The notes under the pieces: model-generated
What the model was told of the DNA's origin: nothing
Databases searched by the model: none
What the model saw: the letters and a program-made list of their open reading frames with translations, nothing else
NCBI GenBank assembly: GCA_036630325.1
Contig: CP142733.1
Location: 1,054,001-1,094,101, forward strand
Source: Vairimorpha necatrix
Taxonomy: Eukaryota
Direction of reading: 5' to 3'
Length of the DNA: 40,101 bases
Part shown: one piece after another, positions 1,621 through 40,101 of the stretch
Layout: every line of letters starts with the position of its first letter
Numbering within the stretch: the first letter of the stretch is position 1
Program-made: the position numbers and the translations under genes

Positions 1621-2594
1621 TACAACGAGACTGCAAATAAAGATAAGTATTTAGGTCGGTTTAAATGATTAAAACATTTATTTTTAAATATTAATGTTTT
1701 ATTTGGCAAATATTTTTTCTTCTAAAATTATTTTACATAATTTAGTTGTCAATCAAAACCGTCCATTTGTCGAAAGATGATTGGCTAGTTTTTATTATGG
1801 TTTCACATGGAAAGAAATATATATCTTACATAAATTGTTTATATATTATTTATTAATTTTATAGAACAATTGGTCCCCTTACATATAGAATGCATTGTCA
1901 AACAGTTTACTTGTATTTTCCATGCCCTCTTTTGGAAATGATTTTAAAAGGTTACAGTAGCCAATCAAATACGTTCACTTGTCGAAAGATGATTTGCTCT
2001 TTTTGATAGGCTACGATATGCATATTAACTCTTTTCGCAAACAAATTAAATGATTATAATACAAATTAAGTGTTATATCTGTTTTATAAATAATTTGAAA
2101 TTTTTTTTTGACCAAATAGAATAAAAAAAACAATTAAGTAAATGAAAAAATTTTTAGCGCCAGATTTGACTTTTTTTTATCACTTATAGATATTTTTTTT
2201 TGTCAAAAATAGAAAAGAAAATATATAAACACGTGAAAACGATTTAAATTACACAAATAAACGAAAAACATGGGAGAAGTGTTGACGCAATAACTAAATT
2301 TTAGCCTATTTAGTCTCTAACAACGGAAAATAGTACACAATGTATGACGTTGGTTGATAGAAGACAGAACAAATTTAAATAGAGAAATAACTGCATGAGA
2401 AAATATTTAGTTATTTAAAATAGAAATAGATGTTTGAAAATTATGAATAGCTAGATAACTGCTCTACTTCGAATTAAAATTATTTAATTTAACATGAATA
2501 TAAAATAAGTTTTTATTTGAAGAATATTATATAAGTTATATTTTATTTAAAAGCAGATTTATTTCATCATTAAGCTCAAAGCACAAAAACCAAA

Positions 2595-3111
2595 TCATAT
2601 ATATAAAAGAATTTTATTTAATTTTTTACCCCTCTTTTTTGTGACTTTGAAATTTCTAAACTATTTATTTTGATCTTATTAAGTTATAAAAATAGTGTTT
2701 TTAGATTTAATGTTTCAATTTGATAATTATAGATGCGAATACTATATGTTAATACTTTTTTGTTTTTTATAAATTTTTTGTAAAACTCAGTTCCAAAATA
2801 TCGTCAGAATCGTTTTTTAGAATTTATTTAACCCTTCCAGGAAAAAATTTAAAAACAAATAACGAAGAAGAAATTGAATGTAAGTGTCAAAAACTGAGCT
2901 TTAGAAGTTCCCAAAATTATTTCATTGAGATTATTAAATGTTTTAAAACAACACTACTCCTTATATGTTACTAAAAAGTATTTTTGAAAATCATGTTTCC
3001 TCCTTTTCAAATTCATCCCAAAATGGAAACTTAACAACAATAAAAGGGGAAATACATATTAAAAAACTAAACATTTAGATTCCGTTTTCAAAACGGGAAA
3101 GCATAAGCTAG
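2595..3111 (+). mobile_element. Non-autonomous Helitron, copy 1 (517 bp)
   Basis: 5' end is A|TCATATATATAAAAG. A subterminal hairpin (t)CCGTTTTcAAAACGG(g) lies about 10 nt before the terminal CTAG. Confidence 0.85.
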
Positions 3112-3633
3112 TCATATATATAAAAGAATTTTATTTAATTTTTTGCCCCTCTTTTTTGTGGTTTTGTAAAATCTAAACTTCTTATTATAGCTTATTGTGT
3201 TATTGTAATATCAAATATAAACTCATTGAATGATTTTGACTATCATGGGTGTGTGTACTGTATGTTAATACATTTCCATTTTAATTCTTATTTTTAGAAA
3301 ACTCAGTTCCAAAATATTGTCAGAATCGTTTTTTAGAATTTATTTAACCCTTCTAGAAAAAATTCACAAAAATATTAACCAAAGAAAAAAGTTGAATAAA
3401 ACTGTCAAAACTTGAGCTTAGAAGTTCCCAAAATTATTTCAATATGATTCATAAGTGTTTCTAACTTAACTTAACTCCTTATATGTTACTAAAAAGTATT
3501 TTTGAAAACGATGTCTTCCTCCTATCAAATTCAATCATCCCGAAATAGAAACTCACCAAAATTCACCGAGGAGCGACATATTATAAAACAAAACATTCAA
3601 ATCCCGTTTTCAAAACGGGAAAGCATACGCTAG
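3112..3633 (+). mobile_element. Non-autonomous Helitron, copy 2 (522 bp)
   Basis: Starts TCATATATATAAAAG directly after the CTAG of copy 1. Ends CCCGTTTTcAAAACGGG-aaagcatacg-CTAG. Confidence 0.85.
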
Positions 3634-3636
3634 TCA

Positions 3637-4156
3637 TCATATATATAAAAGAATTTTATTTAATTTTTTACCCCTCTTTTTTGTAGTTTTAAAATTTCTT
3701 AACGATATGTTTTGAGCTTATTGTGTTATTAAAATAGTGTTTTCGAATTTAATGCTTTCGTTTGATTATCGTAAGTGCGTACACTATATATTAATGCATT
3801 TTTATTTTAATTCTTTGTTTTGTAAAACTCAGTTCCAAAATATCGTCAGAATCGTTTTTTAGAATTTATTTAACCCTTTTAGAAAAATTGCAAAAACATA
3901 TAACCAATGAAGATCTTACATGTAAGTGTCAAAAATTGAGCTTAGAAGTTCCTAAAATTATCTCATTATAACTATTAAATGTTTTTATATCAAGTTTTTT
4001 TCTTATATGTCACTAAAAAGTATTTTAAAAAATCATGTCTAAACTCTGTCAAATTCAATCAGCCAAAAATGGAAACTTCACAAAATTTACCGAGACGGGA
4101 CATATTATAAAACAAACACATTTATCCCGTTTTCAAAACGGGAAAGCATACGCTAG
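3637..4156 (+). mobile_element. Non-autonomous Helitron, copy 3 (520 bp)
   Basis: A|TCATATATATAAAAG start. Ends with the same hairpin and CTAG|T. Confidence 0.85.
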
Positions 4157-9006: not shown

Positions 9007-9353
9007 TGTCATGTATCCGGGGTACATGGCCATCCTTATAGTATTTTTCTAAATAGTTTTTTATATTAATAGTTTTATTTTGTTTATTATAATCTTTGTT
9101 CTGATTATTTAATGAATCTTCTTTCATCATATCCGCGTACCCTTCTCAGCAATATTTCTTTTATATTTTATTTTTAATTAATTGTTCTTTGTCAACAATA
9201 AACGCAAACATTGGCGTACTTACGAATGTAGTAGCGACCATGGAACTTTCGTTTGTTTGATCGTTTACGTGACTCATCATTACACCCCGTTTAAGATGTT
9301 TGACAGCTGATCGTTTTGACAGTTGTCTATGTGATGTAGTCATGTACATCACA
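9007..9353 (-). repeat. 3' LTR of the Gag-only element
   Basis: TGTCATGTA...TACATCACA termini, preceded on the minus strand by the PPT. Confidence 0.92.
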
Positions 9354-9365
9354 TTCTGCCCTCTC

Positions 9366-10847
9366 CTAAAGCTTTAAATTTTTTAAAGATACCACTTCAT
9401 TCTTATATATTCCTGACCACTCTTCATGTTTCAATATTTCGTCCGGCGGTTCTACTATTATATTATTTTTATTAATTTTTATTATTTCCTGCTTATTCTT
9501 CGTGTTTATATTTTCTAACTTTTCTTTGTGCTTATTTCTTATTTTATATGTCTTCATTTGTTTATCTTTATCACGGTATTTTATTTTTGTTAATTTAATA
9601 TCTCGATTTCTTTTATACTCCTCATTATTATTTTCCTTTTCTTTATTTTTTATCTCATTGTTAAGCTTTTGGTCAACATCTGTGTTTCTTTTAATATTTT
9701 TATCTTTTACTTTAAATATATTTGTTTCAACTACCTTCTCGCGTAGTTTCTCGTTACTAAGCGTGTTCGCTTTTATTTCATCATTTGTTGATGTTTCATA
9801 TTTAATTTTCACTTCTTTTGAATTTTTTTTATTTAATGTTTCTTCTTTTAATAAGTCATTATTCTCGACTTTATTTTTCGTTTCTTTAACTTCCTTCATC
9901 ATGTATAGCTTTACTGGAACATCCTCTTTGACTTTTCGATGTTGCGATGTTTTCCTTAGCTGTTCGGAAGTATTATTTTTTATCGTAAAGCATTCGTTTG
10001 AATCGTGCGTAGTATTTTTGTGTAAACTGCACCATTTACTATTCATATAGTTATCGTTTTGATTCCTAAATCGTTCTCGATCCATGTCAATTTGTCTTTG
10101 TTTGAGACCTCGTCTCTTACCTTCTAATATTAGGCGTTCTTCTACTGATTCTAGATATGTAACAATTTCTTCTACGTTATTTTTTCCAAGTTCCAATATC
10201 TTTAGGCGAGTGGAGAAACCTAGGCCTAAAAAGAAATTTTCTCTTAATTTTCTCTCGTACTCTTTTCTTGTTAAGTTTTCTAGTCTAGCATACTGATCTA
10301 CTAGATTCTTTATTTCAAACAAATATTCTTTAATGTATCTAAAATTAATTTGTTTGCATGCCTGTAGCTTTAAATGTAGCATCTCAGGACTTGATCTTTG
10401 ACTTAAATTTTTCTCAATATATCTTCTTATTTTCTCTAAATCTGGTAATGCAAATATTTGTTGCAATGCGGGATCTCGCACTAATTCTGCTAAGGCGATT
10501 TTCTCTTTTTTAAAATCCCATTTTTTGTTCTTAGAAATTTGGTTGAACTCTTCAAACCATGTATCTAACTCCATTTCATTAAATTCTTTGATATTTTTTA
10601 TTATGCTTAAGCTTTTCTTAACTTCTAAATCGATCTCTTCGATCGTATACTTAAATTCTAACGCTTCCTTAGTTACTGCGTTTTTGTCCCCTTTCGATAC
10701 TTTGTGGGAATTGAATTCAATTATGTCATGTATCCGGGGTACATGGCCATCCTTATAGTATTTTTCTAAATAGTTTTTTATATTAATAGTTTTATTTTGT
10801 TTATTATAATCTTTGTTCTGATTATTTAATGAATCTTCTTTCATCAT
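9366..10847 (-). CDS. gag: Gag-like protein (493 aa) with a CHHC zinc knuckle and a K/N/E-rich tail
   Basis: Helical capsid-like region (LDTWFEEF...W...QINFRYIKEY...FFLGL) and WCSLHKNTTHDSNEC (C-x2-H-x4-H-x4-C). No protease, RT or integrase motif. The ATG lies inside the 5' LTR with a GGG motif upstream. Confidence 0.85.
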   Translation of the reverse strand: MMKEDSLNNQNKDYNKQNKTINIKNYLEKYYKDGHVPRIHDIIEFNSHKVSKGDKNAVTKEALEFKYTIEEIDLEVKKSLSIIKNIKEFNEMELDTWFEEFNQISKNKKWDFKKEKIALAELVRDPALQQIFALPDLEKIRRYIEKNLSQRSSPEMLHLKLQACKQINFRYIKEYLFEIKNLVDQYARLENLTRKEYERKLRENFFLGLGFSTRLKILELGKNNVEEIVTYLESVEERLILEGKRRGLKQRQIDMDRERFRNQNDNYMNSKWCSLHKNTTHDSNECFTIKNNTSEQLRKTSQHRKVKEDVPVKLYMMKEVKETKNKVENNDLLKEETLNKKNSKEVKIKYETSTNDEIKANTLSNEKLREKVVETNIFKVKDKNIKRNTDVDQKLNNEIKNKEKENNNEEYKRNRDIKLTKIKYRDKDKQMKTYKIRNKHKEKLENINTKNKQEIIKINKNNIIVEPPDEILKHEEWSGIYKNEVVSLKNLKL

Positions 10848-11070
10848 ATCCGCGTACCCTTCTCAGCAATATTTCTTTTATATTTTATTTTTAATTAATT
10901 GTTCTTTGTCAACAATAAACGCAAACATTGGCGTACTTACGAATGTAGTAGCGACCATGGAACTTTCGTTTGTTTGATCGTTTACGTGACTCATCATTAC
11001 ACCCCGTTTAAGATGTTTGACAGCTGATCGTTTTGACAGTTGTCTATGTGATGTAGTCATGTACATCACA
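10724..11070 (-). repeat. 5' LTR of the Gag-only element
   Basis: Identical copy of 9007-9353. Contains the gag start codon. Confidence 0.92.
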
Positions 11071-17773: not shown

Positions 17774-20039
17774 TGTTACGACCCAGCTGGTTACTAAAAA
17801 AAGAATTTTTCTTAATAGAAACCTTACAAAGGTATTTAAAATGCTCTAAGGGAATTGTTTAGAGTGTTTAGCATAAAACATATTTCAATAACACTCAATA
17901 TTATAATTTAATTATAAAAAATATTCGAAAAAAAATAAAGACATTTTTCTTAAGAATTTTTACTACTTTATTATCTAATTTTTATCTTCTATTTAGTATT
18001 TTGAAATTTAAAAAACTTACAAAATTTCAATTAATATTTTTATCAGTATAATTTTTATTATAATACGCATTTTGAATTATACAAATATTTTCAATTATAA
18101 AAGTTGTTTGTTATATATTTAAATACTAAAATTATACTAACAAAACTATATTTAAATTAATTAAAACGGTATACACGTCGAATTATATTCTCAATTTTAT
18201 TTTAGAATAGTTTGTAATTGTGGAAAAGTTAAAAATATAATTTACACAATGAATTAGTGATTAAAAATGATTGGTTTTGAGCATTGTAAACAAGAATTAT
18301 AAATCTAGATTCTGTAATTAAATTAATTGTACAATGAAAATAGGACAATCTATAAATATTATCAGTTGTTTATATATAATTCGATATACTAATGACACAA
18401 ATATTTTTTATGATGAATTATATTAACGCTGGAATAGAAATATGATAAGTATTGAAAAAAAAATCTAGTTTATATTTTAAAGTAAAATTATAAAGAATAA
18501 AAACTCAATTTAACAAAGCTTAACTATTTTTTTAATTTTTTTACCAAATTCATAGACACAATTTCTTCAGAATCTTTAAACTTAACCTTTAACCTATTAT
18601 TAGACAAAATTTCTATTACTTCTCCTAGTTCAGAATAAAACGAGATAATTTTAACTTTTTTGTTTTGGACTTAACGTCAAAATCTTTTTTTAATATTACT
18701 TTATCTCCTATCACAAAATTATTGATAGAACGATGAACGCATTTTTTGTCCATTCTTAAGGGATATTTTTCGTCTAACATAAATCTATTTTCTCGCCCAA
18801 AGTCAAAATACAAGTCTCTATTTTGATTTCCTCATCGTTAACACTGCTTTTACAAGTATTATATCCCTTCCTTCCATAAAATAATTCAAATGGAGATTTT
18901 TTTGTTGCAGAATGTACTGAGATGTTGTATTGATAAACAACTGTGTCAATGAATAAGACTTAGTTTTTATTATTTGTACCAAAATCCTGCGTAGAGGTGT
19001 TTTTGTAAGTATCATAAAATTGTTTGATTTAATCTCTTAACTTGACCTTGACTCTGAGGATTCCTGGGTCGGCCATGAATTAGTAAAATTTCATTCTGAT
19101 CGCAGAATTCAGATAAAAGTGAATTTTTAAATTCTTTACCATTATCACAATGAAGTTCACTAGGAAGCCCGTACCGATTGAAATTAAATTTCGAATTTTT
19201 AAAACTTCCGAAGCAGTTTACGTTTTCATCACAGAAGTAAATGCATACTTAGAATACACATTTATAGCTTCTAGTAACCAACTATTTTCTTCGTTTTGGT
19301 TGGCATAAACCTTCATGTCTACCAGGTCGATAATAATCCTCTCAAAGGGCCTTTTAGCTAATATATGCTTGTAGGTTTCCTTTGTTTTTAGAGGTTGTGC
19401 CTGTGAACAAACATTGCACTCTTTGCAAACCTCACGCACAAGACTTCTTGGGATAGTGAAGTAAAATTGCTGACACAACTCATATAAACGATTGTGTCCA
19501 TAATGATACTTACTATGTAGAGTTTGTACTTCCAATTTCATTGACTGTACCTTACTCTCTACAACTACCCTTTTATGTAAGCCAGAAATATCTCTTAGAA
19601 AGAGAAATTATCTGCAAGAAAGAACTTTTCGGCTCTTTATCTCAGCCTATACCGTAATTGTTGTCGATGATTGCAGTCAAATCATCTCCTTGGAGATTTT
19701 TACCAGAAGATCATACTCTTCTTGGGTTTTGATTCCTTTCATCGAGGGGATAAAAAAATATTTTCCAAAAAAGTTAAAATTTGTTAAAATATTCTAATTT
19801 TTTTAAGTTTAAGTTACTTGGCTCGGTGGTTACTATTGAGTCTTTGACTTCGGCATTTTTTTTGGTTCAGATATCATATGGGTAAAAAATTTTTTAAAAA
19901 ATTAAAAATGTTTCACGTGATAAAACTAACGGAAACTGGGCATAAATTATGAAAACATAGATCATAAATAAAAATTATAAAATACAAGAAAATATGCTGT
20001 GTACTCAGTCGGCTCGGGTAACCAGTTGGGCTCGCGACA
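17774..20039 (-). mobile_element. Ginger/TDD-like DNA transposon with a Gypsy-type integrase (2266 bp), inactive
   Basis: Imperfect TIRs TGTTACGA-CCCAGCTGGTTAC (17774-17794) and revcomp TGTCGCGAGCCCAACTGGTTAC (to 20039). 5-bp TSD ATTAT on both sides. Internal stand-alone integrase gene. Confidence 0.82.
18524..19742 (-). pseudogene. rve-family integrase/transposase pseudogene (HHCC zinc finger + DDE core + C-terminal domain)
   Basis: CCCCtcgATG start (MKGIKTQEEYDLL). Motifs HSKYHYGH...CKECNVC, RPFERIIIDLVDM, LHCDNGKEF, HGRPRNPQSQGQVKRLN (catalytic E changed to K) and FVIGDKVIL. Several stops and frameshifts; joins track ORFs 19218-19541 and 18625-18813. Confidence 0.88.
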
Positions 20040-31200: not shown

Positions 31201-34059
31201 TATTGTCTATAGTTCATTAAATGCGTTAGATTAAAACTAAGTATGAAAAGATCAAGAAAATTTTTTACTTCAATTTAAATTTTTAATGCACAAAGATTGT
31301 TCTACAAGTAAAATAAACATAATGCGTTAAAAATCTTTGAAAAAACTAATATATTAAGAAATGCAATTTCAATAAAGATAATTGAGGTTAATATTACTTA
31401 AATAATTTTAAAAAAAAAATATATTTAAAGTAGTAGGATAACTTTCTTTAAAAAATCTATATTGGACTAAACTCGTTTTGAAAATATATTTTCATCAGAA
31501 TAGTTATAAAAAACATTAAAACTAAACGTTCAAATAATTTAAAATAAGTAAAAAGAAGAAAATTTTCACGACTGATTAATTTAGAAGTCTCAACCATTAA
31601 AACGAAAATAATATTTTTTGATCATTAAATTGAATTTTATATTTTCAAATTTCGCTCTTGATAATACACATACGACTGATTAAAATAACTAAAAGTTTTA
31701 GAACATATAACGACGTAATTTTTTTTAAAAATAATATATCAATCGAAAAATAACAATGCAGTATATTAAACCTACATTGTTAAACATGATGATATATTCA
31801 ACCAACACGAGAAACATATGATTCAATAATGAAAAATTTATAAAAATATTAAAAATTTTCTTATATTGGTATTTCAAAGAAACCATATCACGGAGGGTTT
31901 TAAAAATTATAGATTAGAGTTTTTTAATTACAATCATTTTTTCATAAAGTTTTATAAATGATTTAAATCATTCTTATAGTAAAACATTCAATTCTAATTA
32001 TCACAAGGAAACATTGGAAAGTTCTTCATATCTAAAAACTCATTTTTTTATGCTTAACTTAAGTTTTTAAAATTATTATGAGAATGTAGCATATATAAAC
32101 CAAATAATATCAAGAAAATTCATAAATAAAAATTTAAAGTCTCAAAGAAACATAAAGACATACGACGAAAAAAAATATAAACATCTATAGAGGAACACAA
32201 CGTACGACATTTCATTCTGTTATGGTTTATTACAACAGTATTTTAAAATTTATGGTATTAATCTGTAAAAATATTATAAAAAAAAAATTTTATTTCAATG
32301 GGAATAATGATAAATATCTAGGAAATAAATCTAATAATGGTCAGAAAACATATTAAATACATTTCAAATTAAAAGATAATCAATATTCATACAAATTGTA
32401 AATTTATACACAAAACTAGTCTGGAAATGAATTACGTATTTCTTCATGTGGATTTTTATAGTAAATATCATATAGTCCACGTATTTATTAATGATACTAT
32501 AATTATGATAAAAATAAAATCAAAATAAATACAGAATTAGTAATTTTATTGAAAAAAAATTTACACTAACCATATAATTTAAAAATATAAATCAATAAGA
32601 ACTAAGAAGGGTTAATAAAAAGTATAAACAAACCTCAATACAGCTAATTAATAGATATTTATATAAATTTAAAGATAGTTTAATTTAAGAGCGTATAAAT
32701 TAAAAAAACAAATCTTATCTTCAATAATGACAGAAAATAGTTTAATTAAAATATTTTAATGCATAATTCCAATTACATATTAAACATAGATGTGGTTGAC
32801 GATTTCTAAAAATTATTAAATTATATTTAATTTAAATATTAATTGATTAAAAAAATATAATAATAAATTGATAAATTAAATTTTAATTATTAAACAAAAA
32901 AATTTTCATGAATTTTTTTGTAATAAACATTTTGATTTTCGTAGAATGAAATCAATCTAATGATTTAATTAAAAATTAAAATTTTTTAATAATCCATGAA
33001 TTGGTTTTATCATAAAGAATAACATTTTAGCATAACACATTAAATAAAACATTTTCATTGAGAATGATAGGTTACTTTTAAACTATTCGCAATTTTTTAA
33101 GCAATAATTTTGAATATACAACATATCTGAATCGCAAAAAATTTATCAATATTAACTGGTTATCAAATATATCAAACCAATTCTCTTCATAATTAAAATT
33201 ATATGAAGATCAATCAAGAAGTAAATCCAACGGTTATAAAAGAAAGATATAAGTACAAACAAAACATATCTACTGTATTATGATCACATAATCAAATATA
33301 TTTTCTATAGGATGTATTTTTCAATTATCCAATAGTTTCACACCCTCTTACTTTTAAAATATTATATTTTCTACCATAAAAAATTGAATTTCAAAGAGAA
33401 CATAAAAAATAGACACAATATCATTTGTAATTATAAAGAATTCCTGGACAGTTAGGTAATACATATATAAATAAAATTGTACATTAGAAGAAGCCGCACC
33501 TCTATGCAGCAGCTCAAGTAGATATAAATATTCATAAAAAATTCAAAAAAACAATTTTTTATTTTATAAAAATAAATTATATCATATTAATTTAGATAAA
33601 TCTTAATTACTTTCATTGATCTATTTTAAAATAACAAAAATTTTTATATATGATATTCGAATGTAATTAGTTATTCGTATTGTATTTTCAAACAAACCCT
33701 GGAATCTAGTCCTTAATGTTTCCAAATTATTAAGTCGTTTTACTTTCTTGGAATAATGATTTAATTTATTATTCAAAGTGGTTATCATGAGCTTTCCTAA
33801 AGAGTATAAGCTCTTATGTCTGTATATATGCGTTAATACAGCATTCGAGACTCAAGTTATTTGTATAATATCCCTAAAATATTATTTTTTAGTATAATAC
33901 GAATATTTCCAGTAAAAAAATATGTTAAAACACAAGAATGACATTTTTTACAATAATATATATTACAAATTAAAGAAGTAATTTCATACTTTTACAATAT
34001 ATTATTTCATAAATTTATTCGCAGAATTACACCAAAAATGCTTTGTGTTTTAATTATAA

Positions 34060-37000
34060 TGTTAAAGTTGAACCTCCTATTAAATAAATGTATAACATGG
34101 CAAACACAAAAGACGAAAGGGTAACAAGTGAGACCTGTGTTTAGGAGATAGAAAATTACTAAAAGAAGCTCAGAGAGTAGAAGCAATCATCGGAATGCAG
34201 AAGGATGTAAAAGATGTGACAACGAAGCAGTCGATAAAACAAGTAAGTTCTGAACTTTAGGATTTTATTATTGACAAAAATTAAATCAGTATGATTAATT
34301 GGAATGATATTATTAGTGAAATTTATAAATTAGTTGTTGAAGAGGAAGAGAATAGTAACCGGAAAAAATAATGAGTAGAGAACTAGAAGATATGGTAGAG
34401 GGTATAAAAGAAAAATTAAAAAGAAGATTAAAGGATAACTGACTAGGACTGTAGCAGTGCCAGGAAGACACATCAAATTAAAAGACGAGAACCCCCAAAA
34501 CATTGTTTTATATGTAGAAGAGTTGGATTTATAGTTAGAAGTTGTATATTGCATAAAGGAAGACAGGAAGAGAATAATGAAAATAAAAGTGTTAAATATT
34601 TTGGGATTCGTGATAATAGTAAAATGAAAATATTAAAAGGAAATGATTTTAAATTGAGACTACCAGTGGAGATAGAAAGAGAGAACTCAAGAAACAGTTT
34701 TTATGTAAAAAATACAAACCAAGATAAAAGAAGAAAAAATATTAATAAATATGAAGAATTGGAAGGAAAATTTCCTGAGGCATTCGGAAAAGACGAAGAG
34801 TAAATAAAATACTTAACAGGGATAAAATGTTCTTTTAAAACAAAACAATGAGTGAAAGTAGTAAAAAAGTAAAAAATATTTCTTATAATAATCGAGAAAA
34901 GTATATTAATTTATTAAAGTAGAGGTATTATCAGAAAGAACAAAGAGCGAATGGATAAGCCCAATTAGGCCCATAGAATTACCAAATGGTGGAGTACAAT
35001 TGAGAAGCAATTTGATGGCTTATAATGAACTGGAATAAAAAGATCCGTATGAATTGCCATTGATTAGAGATATTATTGGGGAACGCAAGTTTCTAAAGTA
35101 TTTATGGTTATAGACCTAAAAAAAGGATTCTAACATATAGAAATTGACAGACTTACAAACATAAGACAGTTTTTAAGATAAATGATAGAGTTTACGAGGG
35201 AATGGCATGGTAAAGGGATTTAAAAATGCTTCCCATATTATGCAAAGAGTGATATACGGAGTTTTAGATAAGTTTAGAGGCAAGAGTGTTAAGGTATACA
35301 TGTATGATATTATTATTCATGCAAGAGATAGTAAAATACAAGAAAATTCTTTAAAACAAGTAATTCGAAAATTTAACGAATGTGGATTTTAAGAAACTTA
35401 AAAGATACAATATAAAGAAGAAGTATAACTACTTTGAGTATCAATTAACGGAGAAGACATTACACCTAACAAAAATAAAAAGCATAAGACATTAAAATAC
35501 AAAAGGCCTAACAACATAAAAGATCTTAGAAGATTTTCGAGATCGTGCAGGCTGGTTAAGAGATTTTATTTCTCATTATGCTTATAGGTCAGCGCTTCTT
35601 ACAGAAGCACTAAAAAAAGATAGTAAATGGGAATGATCCGATATATGGAAAGAGCTTTTATGGATATCAAAATGGGTTTGAAGGATATGAAAAAATTAAA
35701 AATAGTAGATAGTAAAAAAATCTATAGAATAAGAACGGATGCATGCGATACGACAATTGGAGCCATACTTCTGCAAGAAGACAAGGAAGATAGGTGGATT
35801 TGAAACAATGGGCATCAAAAATGATAACATTAACAGATAAAAAGTATATGATTACTAAAAAAGAGATGTTGGCAGTGTTATTCGGAATAAAGAAATTTGA
35901 GTCAGATTTGTGAGGAAGAAAAATTCATTTAATAACAGATCATTAATCACTGGCCGAGATTAGAAACAAACCGTTTTTCAATAATTACATAATTAAGAGA
36001 TGGATAGAATATATACAAGAGTTCGATTTTATTTTTGAATATGTAAAAGGAGAATTGATCACGTATTTATATGCTCATAGTAGACAATTTAAAAAAACGA
36101 AGTGAAAGTAAAAAAGCGAAAGTAGAAAAGGCCCAAAAACAGATGAAAGAAAAAGAAATAAAGCGCATGGTTAATAGAAAAGGTAAAAACTATTGGAAGT
36201 TTTCAACAGGAGAAATTAATAAATACAACACAAAGAAATAAGTGAGAACAGAAATTCGTAGAGTTCATGAGGAATTAAATCATCGAGGAGTTAAGGGAAC
36301 ACATTATAAGATTATACAAAGATGGTACTGGCCAGGTATGAAAGACCAGATAACCACATCGCTAAAAAATTGTTAAGTATGTAGCATTAATAACAAAAAA
36401 ACGATCGGAGGTGGCAATTTTTTTTGGCATTTAAGAAATTAGAAAAGTAGCTTATGACGTAATGGATATTGGGGAAATAGAAAGATACGTGCTATTAGGT
36501 ATGGACTACTTAGAACAAGAGTATGTCACGCAAAGATGGAATTTAAGGGATGTGATGTTATTACTAAAATTTTAGAAAAAATTGTTTAAGGAAGATGGAT
36601 ACACAGATAAATATTTTACGGATAACGGTAAGGAATTTGTCAGTAATAAATTTGTAACTTGGTGTAAAGTAAACGAAATTATGCAATAGAAAGTAGGTTT
36701 AGAAGCTCATAGGAGTAATGGAAGAATAGAACTATGTATTTGAACAATAAGGGAATCGATGATCCATGAAAAAGAAGGAAACCCAGAGGAAAAACTAGAA
36801 CAAGCTGTAAGAACTAATAATTCTTACACACAGCGATTAATTCAACACAATTGAAGCATGGAAAGAACAAGGAAAATAAGTCTTTATTGAAAACAATAAA
36901 AAGGGTGTGTATTCAAGTAATTTTAAATTAAGGCATAGAGAAAAATTTGAAGTAGATCAAGCTGTGAGAATTGCAATAAGAGAAAACAAGGGTAAATAGA

Positions 37001-37218
37001 TGAAAAGTATGAAAGGAAGATTTACAAGTGTTGGTAAAATAATGGGAAAGTGTGAGAATGATTCTTATATTGTAAGGACTGATAGCAAAAGATACATTAA
37101 AAAACGACATTATGACCTAAAAGATTATAAAATGATAAATTAGAAGCTTGTAACGTGAGACTACACTTCTGGAGGGGGATGTTAGGGTTGAACTTTCCTA
37201 TTAAATAAATGTATAACA
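34060..37218 (+). mobile_element. Decayed full-length Ty3/Gypsy LTR retrotransposon with ultra-short LTRs (3159 bp)
   Basis: LTRs TGTTA...TAACA at 34060-34097 (38 bp) and 37180-37218 (39 bp). TSD TATAA on both sides, TGG right after the 5' LTR, PPT GGAGGGGGA before the 3' LTR, and RT-RH-IN domain order. Confidence 0.9.
34097..37143 (+). pseudogene. pol: gag-pol pseudogene: short gag with zinc knuckle, RT, RNase H, integrase
   Basis: CFICRRVGFIVRSC (about 34504-34545). RT: WISPIRPIELPNG, DPYELPLI, IDLKKGF, GFKNAS, YMYDII (YMDD mutated). RH: TDACD...GAILLQ, KKEMLAV, ITDH, RW...IQEFDF. IN: HEELNHRG..WYWPGM..C, TDNGKEF, SNGRIE. Many stops and frameshifts. Confidence 0.9.
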
Positions 37219-37379
37219 TATAATCATTAATCTGAAAAAAAATACTTGAATTATAAAGATAGTTAAATAAATTTTATCTAAAAATTTTCATTTTTTATTT
37301 ATTTTAGTTACATATTGATGTAACTGAATTTTTTTAAAACAAAATATTTAGAAATGTTTGAGGGCTAAAAGCATACGTG

Positions 37380-40101
37380 TTAGGTAGGTTAGGTAGGTTA
37401 GGTAGGTAGGTGGTTAGGTTAGGTAGGTTAGGTTAGGTAGGTTAGGTAGGGTAGGTAGGTAGGTAGGTAGGTTAGGTAGGTAGGTAGGTTAGGTAGGTAG
37501 GTAGGTTAGGTAGGTAGGTTAGGTAGGTTAGGTAGGTTAGGTAGGTTAGGTAGGTTAGGTAGGTTAGGTAGGTAGGTAGGTAGGTTAGGTAGGTAGGTAG
37601 GTTAGGTAGGTAGGTTAGGTAGGTTAGGTAGGTTAGGTTAGGTTAGGTTAGTTAGGTAGGTTAGGTGTTAGGTTAGGTTAGGTTAGGTTAGGTAGGTAGG
37701 TTAGGTAGAGGGTAGGTTAGGTAGGTTAGGTAGGTAGGTTAGGTAGGTAGGTAGGTGGTGGTAGGTTAGGTAGGTTAGGTTAGGTTAGGTAGGTTAGGTA
37801 GGTAGGTAGGTTAGGTAGGGTAGGTTAGGTAGGTTAGGTAGGTGGTAGGTGGTAGGTTTAGGGTAGGTAGGTTAGGTAGGGTAGGTAGGTAGGTTAGGTA
37901 GGTATAGGTAGGTTAGGTAGTAGGTTAGGTAGGTAGTAGGTTTTAGGTTTAGGTAGGTTATAGGTTTAGTTAGGTAGGTTAGGTAGGTTAGGTTAGGTAG
38001 GTTAGGTAGGTTAGGTAGGTTAGGTAGGTAGGTTAGGTTAGGTAGGTTAGGTTAGGTAGTAGGTAGGTAGGTTAGGTAGGTTAGGTTAGGTAGGTTAGGT
38101 AGGTAGGTTAGGTTAGGTTAGGTAGGTAGGTTAGGTAGGTTAGGTAGGTTAGGTAGGTTAGGTAGGTAGGTTAGGTAGGTAGGTTAGGTAGTAGGTTAGG
38201 TAGGTTAGGTAGGTAGGTAGGTAGGTAGGTTAGGTAGGTAGGTAGGTAGGTTAGGTTAGGTTAGTAGGTTTAGGTAGGTAGGTAGGTAGGTTAGGTAGTA
38301 GGTTAGGTAGGTTAGGTAGGTTAGGTAGGTTAGGTAGGTTAGGTAGGTTAGGTAGGTAGGTAGGTAGGTAGGTAGGTTAGGTTAGGTAGGTTAGGTAGGT
38401 AGTAGGTTAGGTAGGTTAGGTAGGTAGGTAGGTTAGGTAGGTTAGGTAGGTAGGTTAGGTAGGTTAGGTAGGTAGGTAGGTTAGGTAGGTAGGTTAGGTT
38501 AGGTTAGGTAGGTAGGTTAGGTAGGTAGGTTAGGTAGGTTAGGTAGGTAGGTAGGTAGGTAGGTAGGTTAGGTAGGTAGGTTAGGTTAGGTAGGTAGGTA
38601 GGTTAGGTAGGTAGGTTAGGTAGGTTAGGTAGGTAGGTTAGGTAGGTAGGTTAGGTAGGTTAGGTAGGTTAGGTTAGGTAGGTTAGGTAGGTTAGGTAGG
38701 TAGGTTAGGTAGGTTAGGTAGGTTAGGTAGGTTAGGTTAGGTAGGTTAGGTAGGTTAGGTAGGTAGGTAGGTTAGGTAGGTAGGTTAGGTAGGTAGGTTA
38801 GGTAGGTTAGGTAGGTTAGGTAGGTTAGGTAGGTAGGTAGGTTAGGTAGGTAGGTTAGGTAGGTAGGTAGGTAGGTAGGTAGGTAGGTTAGGTAGGTTAG
38901 GTAGGTTAGGTAGGTTAGGTTAGGTAGGTTAGGTAGGTTAGGTAGGTTAGGTTAGGTAGGTAGGTAGGTAGGTTAGGTAGGTAGGTTAGGTAGGTAGGTT
39001 AGGTAGGTTAGGTAGGTTAGGTAGGTAGGTAGGTAGGTTAGGTAGGTTAGGTAGGTTAGGTAGGTTAGGTAGGTAGGTGTAGGTTAGGTTAGGTAGGTTA
39101 GGTAGGTAGGTAGGTAGGTTAGGTAGGTAGGTAGGTAGGTTAGGTTAGGTAGGTAGGTTAGGTAGGTTAGGTAGGTTAGGTAGGTTAGGTAGGTAGGTAG
39201 GTTAGGTTAGGTTAGGTAGGTAGGTAGGTAGGTTAGGTAGGTTAGGTTAGGTAGGTTAGGTAGGTAGGTAGGTTAGGTTAGGTAGGTAGGTTAGGTAGGT
39301 AGGTAGGTTAGGTAGGTTAGGTAGGTTAGGTAGGTTAGGTAGGTTAGGTTAGGTAGGTAGGTAGGTTAGGTAGGTTAGGTAGGTAGGTTAGGTAGGTTAG
39401 GTAGGTTAGGTTAGGTTAGGTAGGTTAGGTAGGTTAGGTAGGTAGGTTAGGTAGGTTAGGTAGGTTAGGTAGGTTAGGTAGGTTAGGTTAGGTAGGTAGG
39501 TAGGTTAGGTAGGTTAGGTAGGTAGGTTAGGTAGGTTAGGTAGGTAGGTAGGTTAGGTAGGTTAGGTTAGGTAGGTAGGTTAGGTAGGTTAGGTTAGGTT
39601 AGGTAGGTTAGGTAGGTAGGTTAGGTAGGTTAGGTAGGTAGGTAGGTTAGGTTAGGTAGGTTAGGTAGGTTAGGTAGGTTAGGTTAGGTAGGTAGGTTAG
39701 GTTAGGTAGGTTAGGTAGGTTAGGTAGGTAGGTAGGTTAGGTAGGTTAGGTAGGTAGGTTAGGTAGGTTAGGTAGGTAGGTTAGGTTAGGTAGGTAGGTA
39801 GGTAGGTTAGGTAGGTTAGGTAGGTTAGGTTAGGTAGGTTAGGTAGGTTAGGTAGGTAGGTTAGGTAGGTAGGTAGGTAGGTTAGGTAGGTTAGGTAGGT
39901 TAGGTAGGTAGGTAGGTTAGGTTAGGTAGGTTAGGTAGGTAGGTTAGGTAGGTTAGGTAGGTTAGGTAGGTTAGGTAGGTAGGTAGGTTAGGTAGGTTAG
40001 GTAGGTTAGGTAGGTAGGTAGGTAGGTAGGTAGGTAGGTTAGGTAGGTTAGGTAGGTTAGGTAGGTAGGTTAGGTTAGGTAGGTTAGGTAGGTAGGTAGG
40101 T
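37380..40101 (+). repeat. Telomeric tract of mixed TAGG / TTAGG units
   Basis: About 2.7 kb of T(1-2)AGG running to the end of the window, with the G-rich strand oriented 5'->3' toward the end. Variant units are concentrated in the proximal part. Confidence 0.95.

Follow-up and report, generated by a model that had tools for sequence, protein, structure and literature searches.

A fossil Ty3/gypsy insertion in Vairimorpha necatrix points to a microsporidian retrotransposon lineage with terminal repeats of ~38-47 nt and no detectable protease

A dead Ty3/gypsy retrotransposon of 3159 bp on Vairimorpha necatrix contig CP142733.1 (assembly GCA_036630325.1) is bounded by direct terminal repeats of only 38 and 39 nt. 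It occupies positions 34060..37218 (+ strand) of the stretch analyzed here, a window of 40,101 nt that corresponds to contig positions 1,054,001 to 1,094,101 of the forward strand. We consider it likely that this fossil belongs to a microsporidian lineage whose complete long terminal repeat (LTR) measures ~38-47 nt and whose single protein of ~1000 aa joins gag, reverse transcriptase (RT), RNase H (RH) and integrase (IN) but lacks a protease. An earlier note on this stretch had proposed a minimal LTR-retrotransposon lineage, and this interpretation is supported by one complete LTR pair and by LTR junctions that are conserved in the protein termini of relatives.

The 5′ micro-LTR lies at 34060..34097 (38 nt, + strand) and the 3′ micro-LTR at 37180..37218 (39 nt, + strand), enclosing an interior of 3082 bp; both strings quoted in the earlier note are present exactly at these positions, and both copies read TGTTA...TAACA. 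The pentamer TATAA, taken as the target site duplication (TSD), directly precedes the first repeat (34055..34059, + strand) and directly follows the second (37219..37223, + strand), whereas 5-mers are identical at this spacing at 137 of 34131 window positions, a chance level of 0.4%. When aligned, the two repeats agree in 35 of 39 columns and differ by two A/G exchanges, one C/T exchange and one 1-nt indel; their longest exact run is 24 nt, and their final 23 nt are identical. The signals described at the junctions could each be read in the sequence. Specifically, the polypurine tract (PPT) GGAGGGGGA at 37171-37179 ends a conserved pre-LTR block (37157..37179, + strand) and abuts the 3′ LTR, the sequence TGGCAAACACAAAAG, which resembles a primer-binding site (PBS), follows the 5′ LTR directly (34098..34112, + strand; TGG at 34098-34100), and AATAAA lies within both repeats (34083-34088 and 37204-37209, + strand). 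In the 5′ copy, an in-frame ATG (34088-34090) shares a base with the AATAAA and follows the stop codon TAA (34085-34087). Another ATG (34097..34099, + strand) straddles the LTR end and the TGG and forms the start of the MANT... polyprotein, with window frame 2 reading MYNMANT; this putative gag start codon had been said to overlap the final CA of the LTR, but it overlaps only the last A. Overall, the window copy displays the features of the LTR order, i.e., TG...CA direct repeats, a TSD within the 4-6 bp range and a PPT before the 3′ LTR.

The similarity between the two repeats stops at the proposed ends. When the element was compared with the whole window by blastn, the sole match was that between the two LTR copies, over 40 columns and with none beyond, and the outer flanks are unlike (upstream, GCTTTGTGTTTTAATTATAA versus ACTACACTTCTGGAGGGGGA; the downstream flanks also differ), so that TATAA stands as a TSD rather than as part of a longer repeat. 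With intact TG...CA ends and a 5-bp duplication, the element was integrated in micro-LTR form and not trimmed to it later, as the earlier note had held. Neither local blastn nor tblastn found a second copy of the micro-LTR element in the window.

The DNA ends of relatives were compared at three loci (L001, L002 and L003), all of them stray contigs within bacterial metagenome-assembled genomes (MAGs). These loci are filed under Clostridium sp. and Turicibacter sp. MAGs (34-37% GC) and encode microsporidian-type gypsy polyproteins, one of which is named as a Clostridium reverse transcriptase; they look like eukaryotic contaminants that were binned with bacterial genomes. In L001, which has an unbroken open reading frame (ORF), the PPT is followed by a 38-nt block, TGTTGGGTTATTAGCCCCTATTAAATAAATGACTAACA, at 2724-2761 (...TAACA) and then by unrelated flank. 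The block matches the window 3′ LTR in 29 of 39 columns, with the same start and end points, and the stretch before it matches the pre-LTR block at 37157-37179 in 21 of 25 columns (both counted by eye). The L001 LTR consists of a T-rich part, GCCCC, 10 nt containing AATAAA, ATG, and 7 nt to the terminal A, with TTATTAGCCCC located 10 nt upstream of the LTR's ATG. In the decayed locus L002, whose 3′ end is cut, positions 2387-2433 form a candidate LTR of 47 nt, and TGGCAACACCG comes next, at the place of the PBS. Both window copies and L001 carry the LTR core CCTATTAAATAAATG without a mismatch, L002 has it with one change (T to G), and the core CCTA[T/G]TAAATAAATG is found in all four LTR copies examined, although identity to the full-length relative P0006 is only 55% for the L001 protein and 42% for that of L002. 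Relative to L001, GG has become AA in the 5′ window copy (34065-34066 versus 37185-37186), and C has become T in the 3′ copy (34074-34077 versus 37194-37198). These changes suggest a drift toward A/T in each of the LTR copies once the element had inserted, which fits AT-biased decay in the source genome.

Short repeats are frequent in AT-rich DNA (if 2 mismatches or fewer are allowed, ~1.3 occurrences of the 15-nt core are expected in a shuffled window), and the terminal repeats could in principle be a product of chance around a retro-derived pseudogene. The identical 23-mer, however, was found at two places in the window when as many as 3 mismatches were tolerated, and none of 100 shuffles contained it, nor an exact pair of it. 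Moreover, the repeats lie exactly at the PPT and the TGG, carry a 5-bp duplication that has a 0.4% probability by chance and are homologous to the ends of L001 and L002. The shuffles, the L001 block and the TSD odds effectively refute a chance origin, to which we assign almost no credence.

The LTR junctions can also be read from proteins. Among 33 relatives with a full gag N-terminus, 8 begin directly with M[A/G], in 19 this pair follows a short leader, and the remaining 6 begin differently. In all 19 leader proteins, the residue before M[A/G] is Y, H, D or N, i.e., a residue encoded by NAY codons, as compared with a background of 15.4%; since the family proteins are related, these terminus counts are not independent trials. 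For example, Nosema granulosis P0001 starts with MANTRNQ and P0004 with MTYMANT, and the LTR's ATG is in frame with the junction ATG both in the window (MYNMANT) and in N. granulosis (MTYMANT). At the other end, 9 of the 33 proteins have C-terminal tails of the forms ...GG plus ML, ...G(G)D plus VV or VM, or ...GGC, which correspond to the PPT plus TGTT as translated in three different frames. This pattern points to an ...ACA/TGG junction that is conserved across the family while the amino acid varies; the conservation would lie at the DNA level, because the reading frame and the residue change among relatives.

These termini also bear on whether the window copy could be an ordinary gypsy element, its 38-mers being leftovers of deletions or mere tips of longer LTRs carried by other members. 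Longer LTRs are known close at hand, both in the published gypsy consensus retroA of Anncaliia algerae (169 bp; Parisot et al. 2014, PMC4202319, Supplementary File S1) and in a second LTR element of the same window (347 bp, see below), and the window copy is old and heavily mutated. Nevertheless, deletion would have had to occur twice and independently, each time sparing the same 38 nt, with the TG...CA ends intact and a 5-bp duplication beside them. In addition, the other readable 3′ end, that of L001 with its unbroken ORF, has a contiguous homologous 38-nt block between PPT and unrelated flank, so that the 38-mer is not the tip of a long LTR in L001, and the ORF start falls on the ...ACA/TGG junction in 19 of 19 leader relatives. 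We therefore regard an origin from normal-length LTRs as highly improbable.

The interior had been described as a gag-RT-RH-IN region, and this is borne out by Pfam matches and by colinearity with N. granulosis proteins. In tblastn, P0001-P0003 align colinearly with 34150-36824, from gag through integrase, with 47-74% identity, and P0006, P0008 and P0014 are also colinear with the interior. The coding region is thoroughly dead, a point absent from the earlier note. Specifically, all frames of the interior are full of stops in the stop-to-stop ORF list, and the single gag-pol frame (34097..37143, + strand) is interrupted by ~46 in-frame stops and by 5 or more frame changes, counted along the tblastn path against P0006, where overlapping segments may double-count a few stops. 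From the 5′ side, the remains include a gag zinc knuckle, CFICRRVGFIVRSC (34504..34545, + strand), in which the CCHC His is replaced and which lies in an ORF (34447-34803) aligned to P0001 CFICKKTGHWARSC; in relatives, C140, C143, H148 and C153 of this motif are invariant (alignment A1). They are followed by a broken RT with the start of RNase H (34937..35800, + strand; P0001 residues 251-541, 48% identity by tblastn), an RNase H domain with 2 stops (35809..36024, + strand; 73% identical to P0001) and, after the zinc-binding domain of integrase, a broken integrase catalytic core (36435..36824, + strand; P0003 residues 355-484, 50% identity by tblastn). The Pfam scan, for which three frames were translated with X at stops, returned RT_RNaseH_2 (35648-35797, + strand; 1.7e-07), RT_RNaseH (over the RNase H domain; 8.7e-12), Integrase_H2C2 (PF17921; 36233..36397, + strand; 7.6e-11) and, weakly, rve (36486-36683, + strand; E = 0.011), each in a different frame, but neither RVT_1 nor a protease. 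The window copy therefore retains the Ty3/gypsy domain order RT - RNase H - integrase. Given the stops, the frame changes and the lost zinc-knuckle His, it is a fossil and not an active element, decayed by point mutations and small indels after integration. A protein search with a 104-aa piece of its RNase H gave 3 matches, all of them N. granulosis 'Pol polyprotein' entries with 70-74% identity, and the family may be extinct in the source genome. The GC content of the element is 0.30, as compared with 0.23 for the rest of the window.

A search with P0001 retrieved 116 proteins at E <= 1e-10, the nearest ~70 of which come from Nosema, Vairimorpha, Enteropsectra, Pseudoloma, Nematocida and Pancytospora or are unnamed. 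Many family members, in several genera, are a single intact ORF of ~1000-1050 aa, and the best matches of P0006 among solved structures are Ty3 Gag-Pol 7q5b (1.7e-61) and Ty3 RT 4ol8 (4.7e-58). We found no match to retropepsin Pfam families at E <= 1 in any of 7 intact members, and no protease family in the precomputed Pfam lists of close members. In the five proteins examined for this feature, the gag-RT linker, which runs from the zinc knuckle to the RT N-terminal block, comprises ~45-115 mostly low-complexity residues; D[TS]G occurs in the wider gag-RT segment of 2 of 39 proteins, both times within those linkers. As judged from these searches, the ~1000-aa protein of the family appears to be devoid of a detectable protease, whereas the Ty3/gypsy definition includes an aspartic protease between gag and RT. 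The public names of members P0001-P0071 are inconsistent ('krab-a domain-containing protein', 'endonuclease', 'Transposon Tf2-9 polyprotein', 'Pol polyprotein from transposon 17.6'), and none of them reflects the missing protease.

How could an LTR of this size work? In the scheme that we propose, the outer bases TGTT... and ...ACA would serve as integrase attachment sites, and the C-rich motif, which lies in the LTR's first half, would act as a host-type core promoter, with transcription starting just downstream. U3 would then comprise approximately the first 18-22 nt, i.e., one attachment end plus the promoter, and R approximately the last 16-20 nt (AATAAA, ATG and ~9 nt to the LTR end), including the other attachment end. 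Present at both RNA ends, R would guide the first strand transfer and would also supply both the poly(A) signal and the earliest start codon in frame, while U5 would be close to zero, with poly(A) added at the LTR end or just beyond. A primer would anneal at the TGG... directly after the LTR, the short minus-strand strong-stop DNA would be transferred on 10-20 nt of homology, and the plus strand would be primed by the PPT GGAGGGGGA. The gag-pol protein may act uncleaved or may be cut by a cellular protease. A host-type promoter is supported by the following: all three plus-strand window ORFs of at least 120 aa have CCC 0-4 nt before the ATG, the motif TTTTTTTACCCC has been reported for Nosema no more than 20 bp away from start codons (PMC11592040), and 5′ untranslated regions shorter than 7 nt and the use of AAUAAA have been reported for Encephalitozoon (PMC2803860). 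If this scheme holds, the lineage, at ~3.1-3.2 kb and present in several microsporidian genera, may be the smallest known among autonomous LTR retroelements, with a 38-47-nt LTR that combines attachment ends, a C-rich promoter, a poly(A) signal, an R of ~10-20 nt and a start codon, and with no protease of its own; we advance this only tentatively.

Alternatively, the micro-repeats could be genuine products of reverse transcription but not self-sufficient LTRs. Transcripts would then come by read-through from neighboring promoters, a common event in microsporidia, either the full 38 nt or microhomology would serve for strand transfer, and the family, lacking a protease of its own, may lean on host factors or other elements. 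In favor of this alternative, overrun of transcription and blurred 3′ ends have been reported in Encephalitozoon (PMC2803860), and no protease was detected in the family. On the other hand, the core CCTA[T/G]TAAATAAATG is kept in 4 of 4 copies of elements whose proteins have diverged to ~42-55% identity with P0006, which argues that the LTR itself has a function in cis; in L001, the LTR's ATG has a host-type C-rich motif 10 nt before it; and many intact ORFs of ~1000 aa exist across several genera. We consider this alternative unlikely.

Several observations weigh against a lineage of self-sufficient micro-LTR elements. The only complete LTR pair found is that of the window, as L001 has no 5′ end and L002 no 3′ end, while L003 is 5′-truncated and no LTR was found in it; the 5′ boundary of the L002 47-mer is a candidate and unconfirmed. 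The contig sizes of many relatives (3.03-3.16 kb) were rejected as a gauge of LTR length, because de Bruijn unitigs that span an interior and its k-1 overlaps would be equally long for an LTR of any length. We infer the U3/R/U5 division, the start site, the poly(A) site, the promoter and the tRNA primer, and the C-rich motif is degraded in the window copy, to CTCC and TTCC. The primer site TGGCAAACAC is left without a match, because no tRNA gene was found in the window or in L001-L003. Residues 2-4 after Met differ among subfamilies (ANT, ASA, ATA, APS and GAT), and the primer site beyond TGG(C/G) is therefore not uniform. Finally, the protein search revealed no closer intact copy from the source genome, the best of its 3 matches reaching 73%. 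Tf1-type self-priming was also considered and rejected, given that the LTR plus downstream sequence folds no better than shuffles, with z = -0.07 for the window and z = -0.78 for L002.

With respect to its chromosomal setting, the element ends ~160 bp from a composite telomere array (37380-40101), the G-rich strand of which runs to the window end and which comprises 353 TAGG and 241 TTAGG units over 2.7 kb. The array matches the composite telomere of Nosema muscidifuracis, for which TAGG/TTAGG units, 22.6% GC and conserved subtelomeres of ~20 kb have been published (PMC11592040, PMC10133504); the GC content of the window is ~23%. The genome is thus AT-rich and Nosema-like, and the microsporidian host guessed in the earlier note fits as well. 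Further copies with the same TATAA in the source genome could accordingly be subtelomere duplicates rather than new insertions.

The window also holds other repeats. A second LTR element, on the minus strand at 9007-11070, is conventional: its 347-bp LTRs are 100% identical (TGTGATG...CATGACA), it is flanked by the 5-bp duplication CAAAG, and a purine-rich tract precedes the 3′ LTR. A single ORF is present, a gag-like frame of 493 aa (9366-10847) whose start lies within the 5′ LTR. The element has neither pol nor a TGG after the LTR and looks like a young non-autonomous element; a relationship of the 493-aa ORF to the gag of the micro-LTR family was rejected (E = 1.4). An integrase-like fragment at 19018-19170 (minus strand), 35% identical to P0003 over 51 aa and located where GC rises locally (0.32 at 19-20 kb), probably represents the remnant of a further retroelement. 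Tandem repeats of ~520 bp at ~2594-3660 (offsets 516-523 and 1042) carry TTTTTT(A/G)CCC at 2622, 3139 and 3664, which resembles the Nosema promoter motif; no long ORF follows.

If 38 nt are enough for a working LTR, they set a new lower bound on the cis needs of reverse transcription and integration, and, if true, the lineage shows the extent to which compaction of a mobile element can go together with that of the gene-expression signals of its host. A protease-less gypsy lineage also makes one ask whether Gag-Pol needs to undergo cleavage. The practical consequences concern annotation. LTR length is commonly stated as a hundred to several thousand bp. The window repeats fall below this range and below the defaults of LTRharvest, which require LTRs of at least 100 bp (minlenltr 100) and a seed of 30 exact bases (seed 30; PMC2253517, Table 1), and micro-LTR elements are missed for this reason, in line with the expectation of the earlier note that default LTR finders would overlook them. 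The ORFs of missed elements are named as host proteins, even inside bacterial MAGs, which distorts microsporidian gene counts and repeat estimates. In terms of novelty, the lineage is of a known kind, microsporidian Ty3/gypsy, but an extreme variant of it, and no description was found in the literature searched; its interest lies in the lineage revealed, the window element itself being dead. We found no description of microsporidian LTRs shorter than 100 bp in that literature, outside of which Tables S1-S6 of Parisot et al. or Xu et al. 2006 (Nbr elements of Nosema bombycis) could state lengths that bear on novelty, and exact-phrase searches for very short LTRs returned nothing on microsporidia in the titles or abstracts found.

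Among known systems, the closest are the 'Retrovirus-related Pol polyprotein' entries of N. granulosis (P0001, P0003, P0004 and P0045), which belong to the same protein family as the window copy, and the relatives from Vairimorpha, Enteropsectra, Pseudoloma and Nematocida or without a name, which belong to it as well. All of these are annotated only as proteins, and they share a MANT start at the LTR/TGG junction, one gag-RT-RH-IN ORF of ~1000 aa and the lack of a protease family; in contrast to the dead window copy, many of them are intact. Ty3 of Saccharomyces cerevisiae has the same RT-RNaseH-integrase order, and residues 247-649 of P0006 align to residues 612-1010 of Ty3 Gag-Pol, so that 611 residues precede the aligned RT stretch in Ty3 versus 246 in P0006. 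Ty3 has TG...CA LTR ends, a 5-bp duplication, a protease, separate gag and pol frames and LTRs of ~340 bp within ~5.4 kb. Terminal-repeat retrotransposons in miniature (TRIMs) combine short terminal repeats with a PBS and a PPT, but they are non-coding and non-autonomous, and their repeats still measure ~100 bp or more; unlike TRIMs, the family described here carries its own RT and integrase. Parisot et al. 2014 reported microsporidian gypsy elements with a single polyprotein, and the passages found do not discuss LTR length or protease (PMC4202319). The retroA consensus printed in Supplementary File S1 of that study is 3614 bp long and compact with a single long ORF, like the family; its PPT, AGGAGGGGGA, abuts the 3′ LTR, as in the window copy, and its LTR has a AAATAAATG motif after a C-rich run, a likeness to the micro-LTR. 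It differs in its 169-bp LTRs (counted from the printed lines, versus 38-39 bp in the window copy), in LTR ends that are not TG...CA and, unlike the family, in a protease active site, FDTGASES (read by eye), and two zinc knuckles. From these sequences, the window family looks like a further reduced relative of the retroA type, with LTRs four times shorter and the protease gone.

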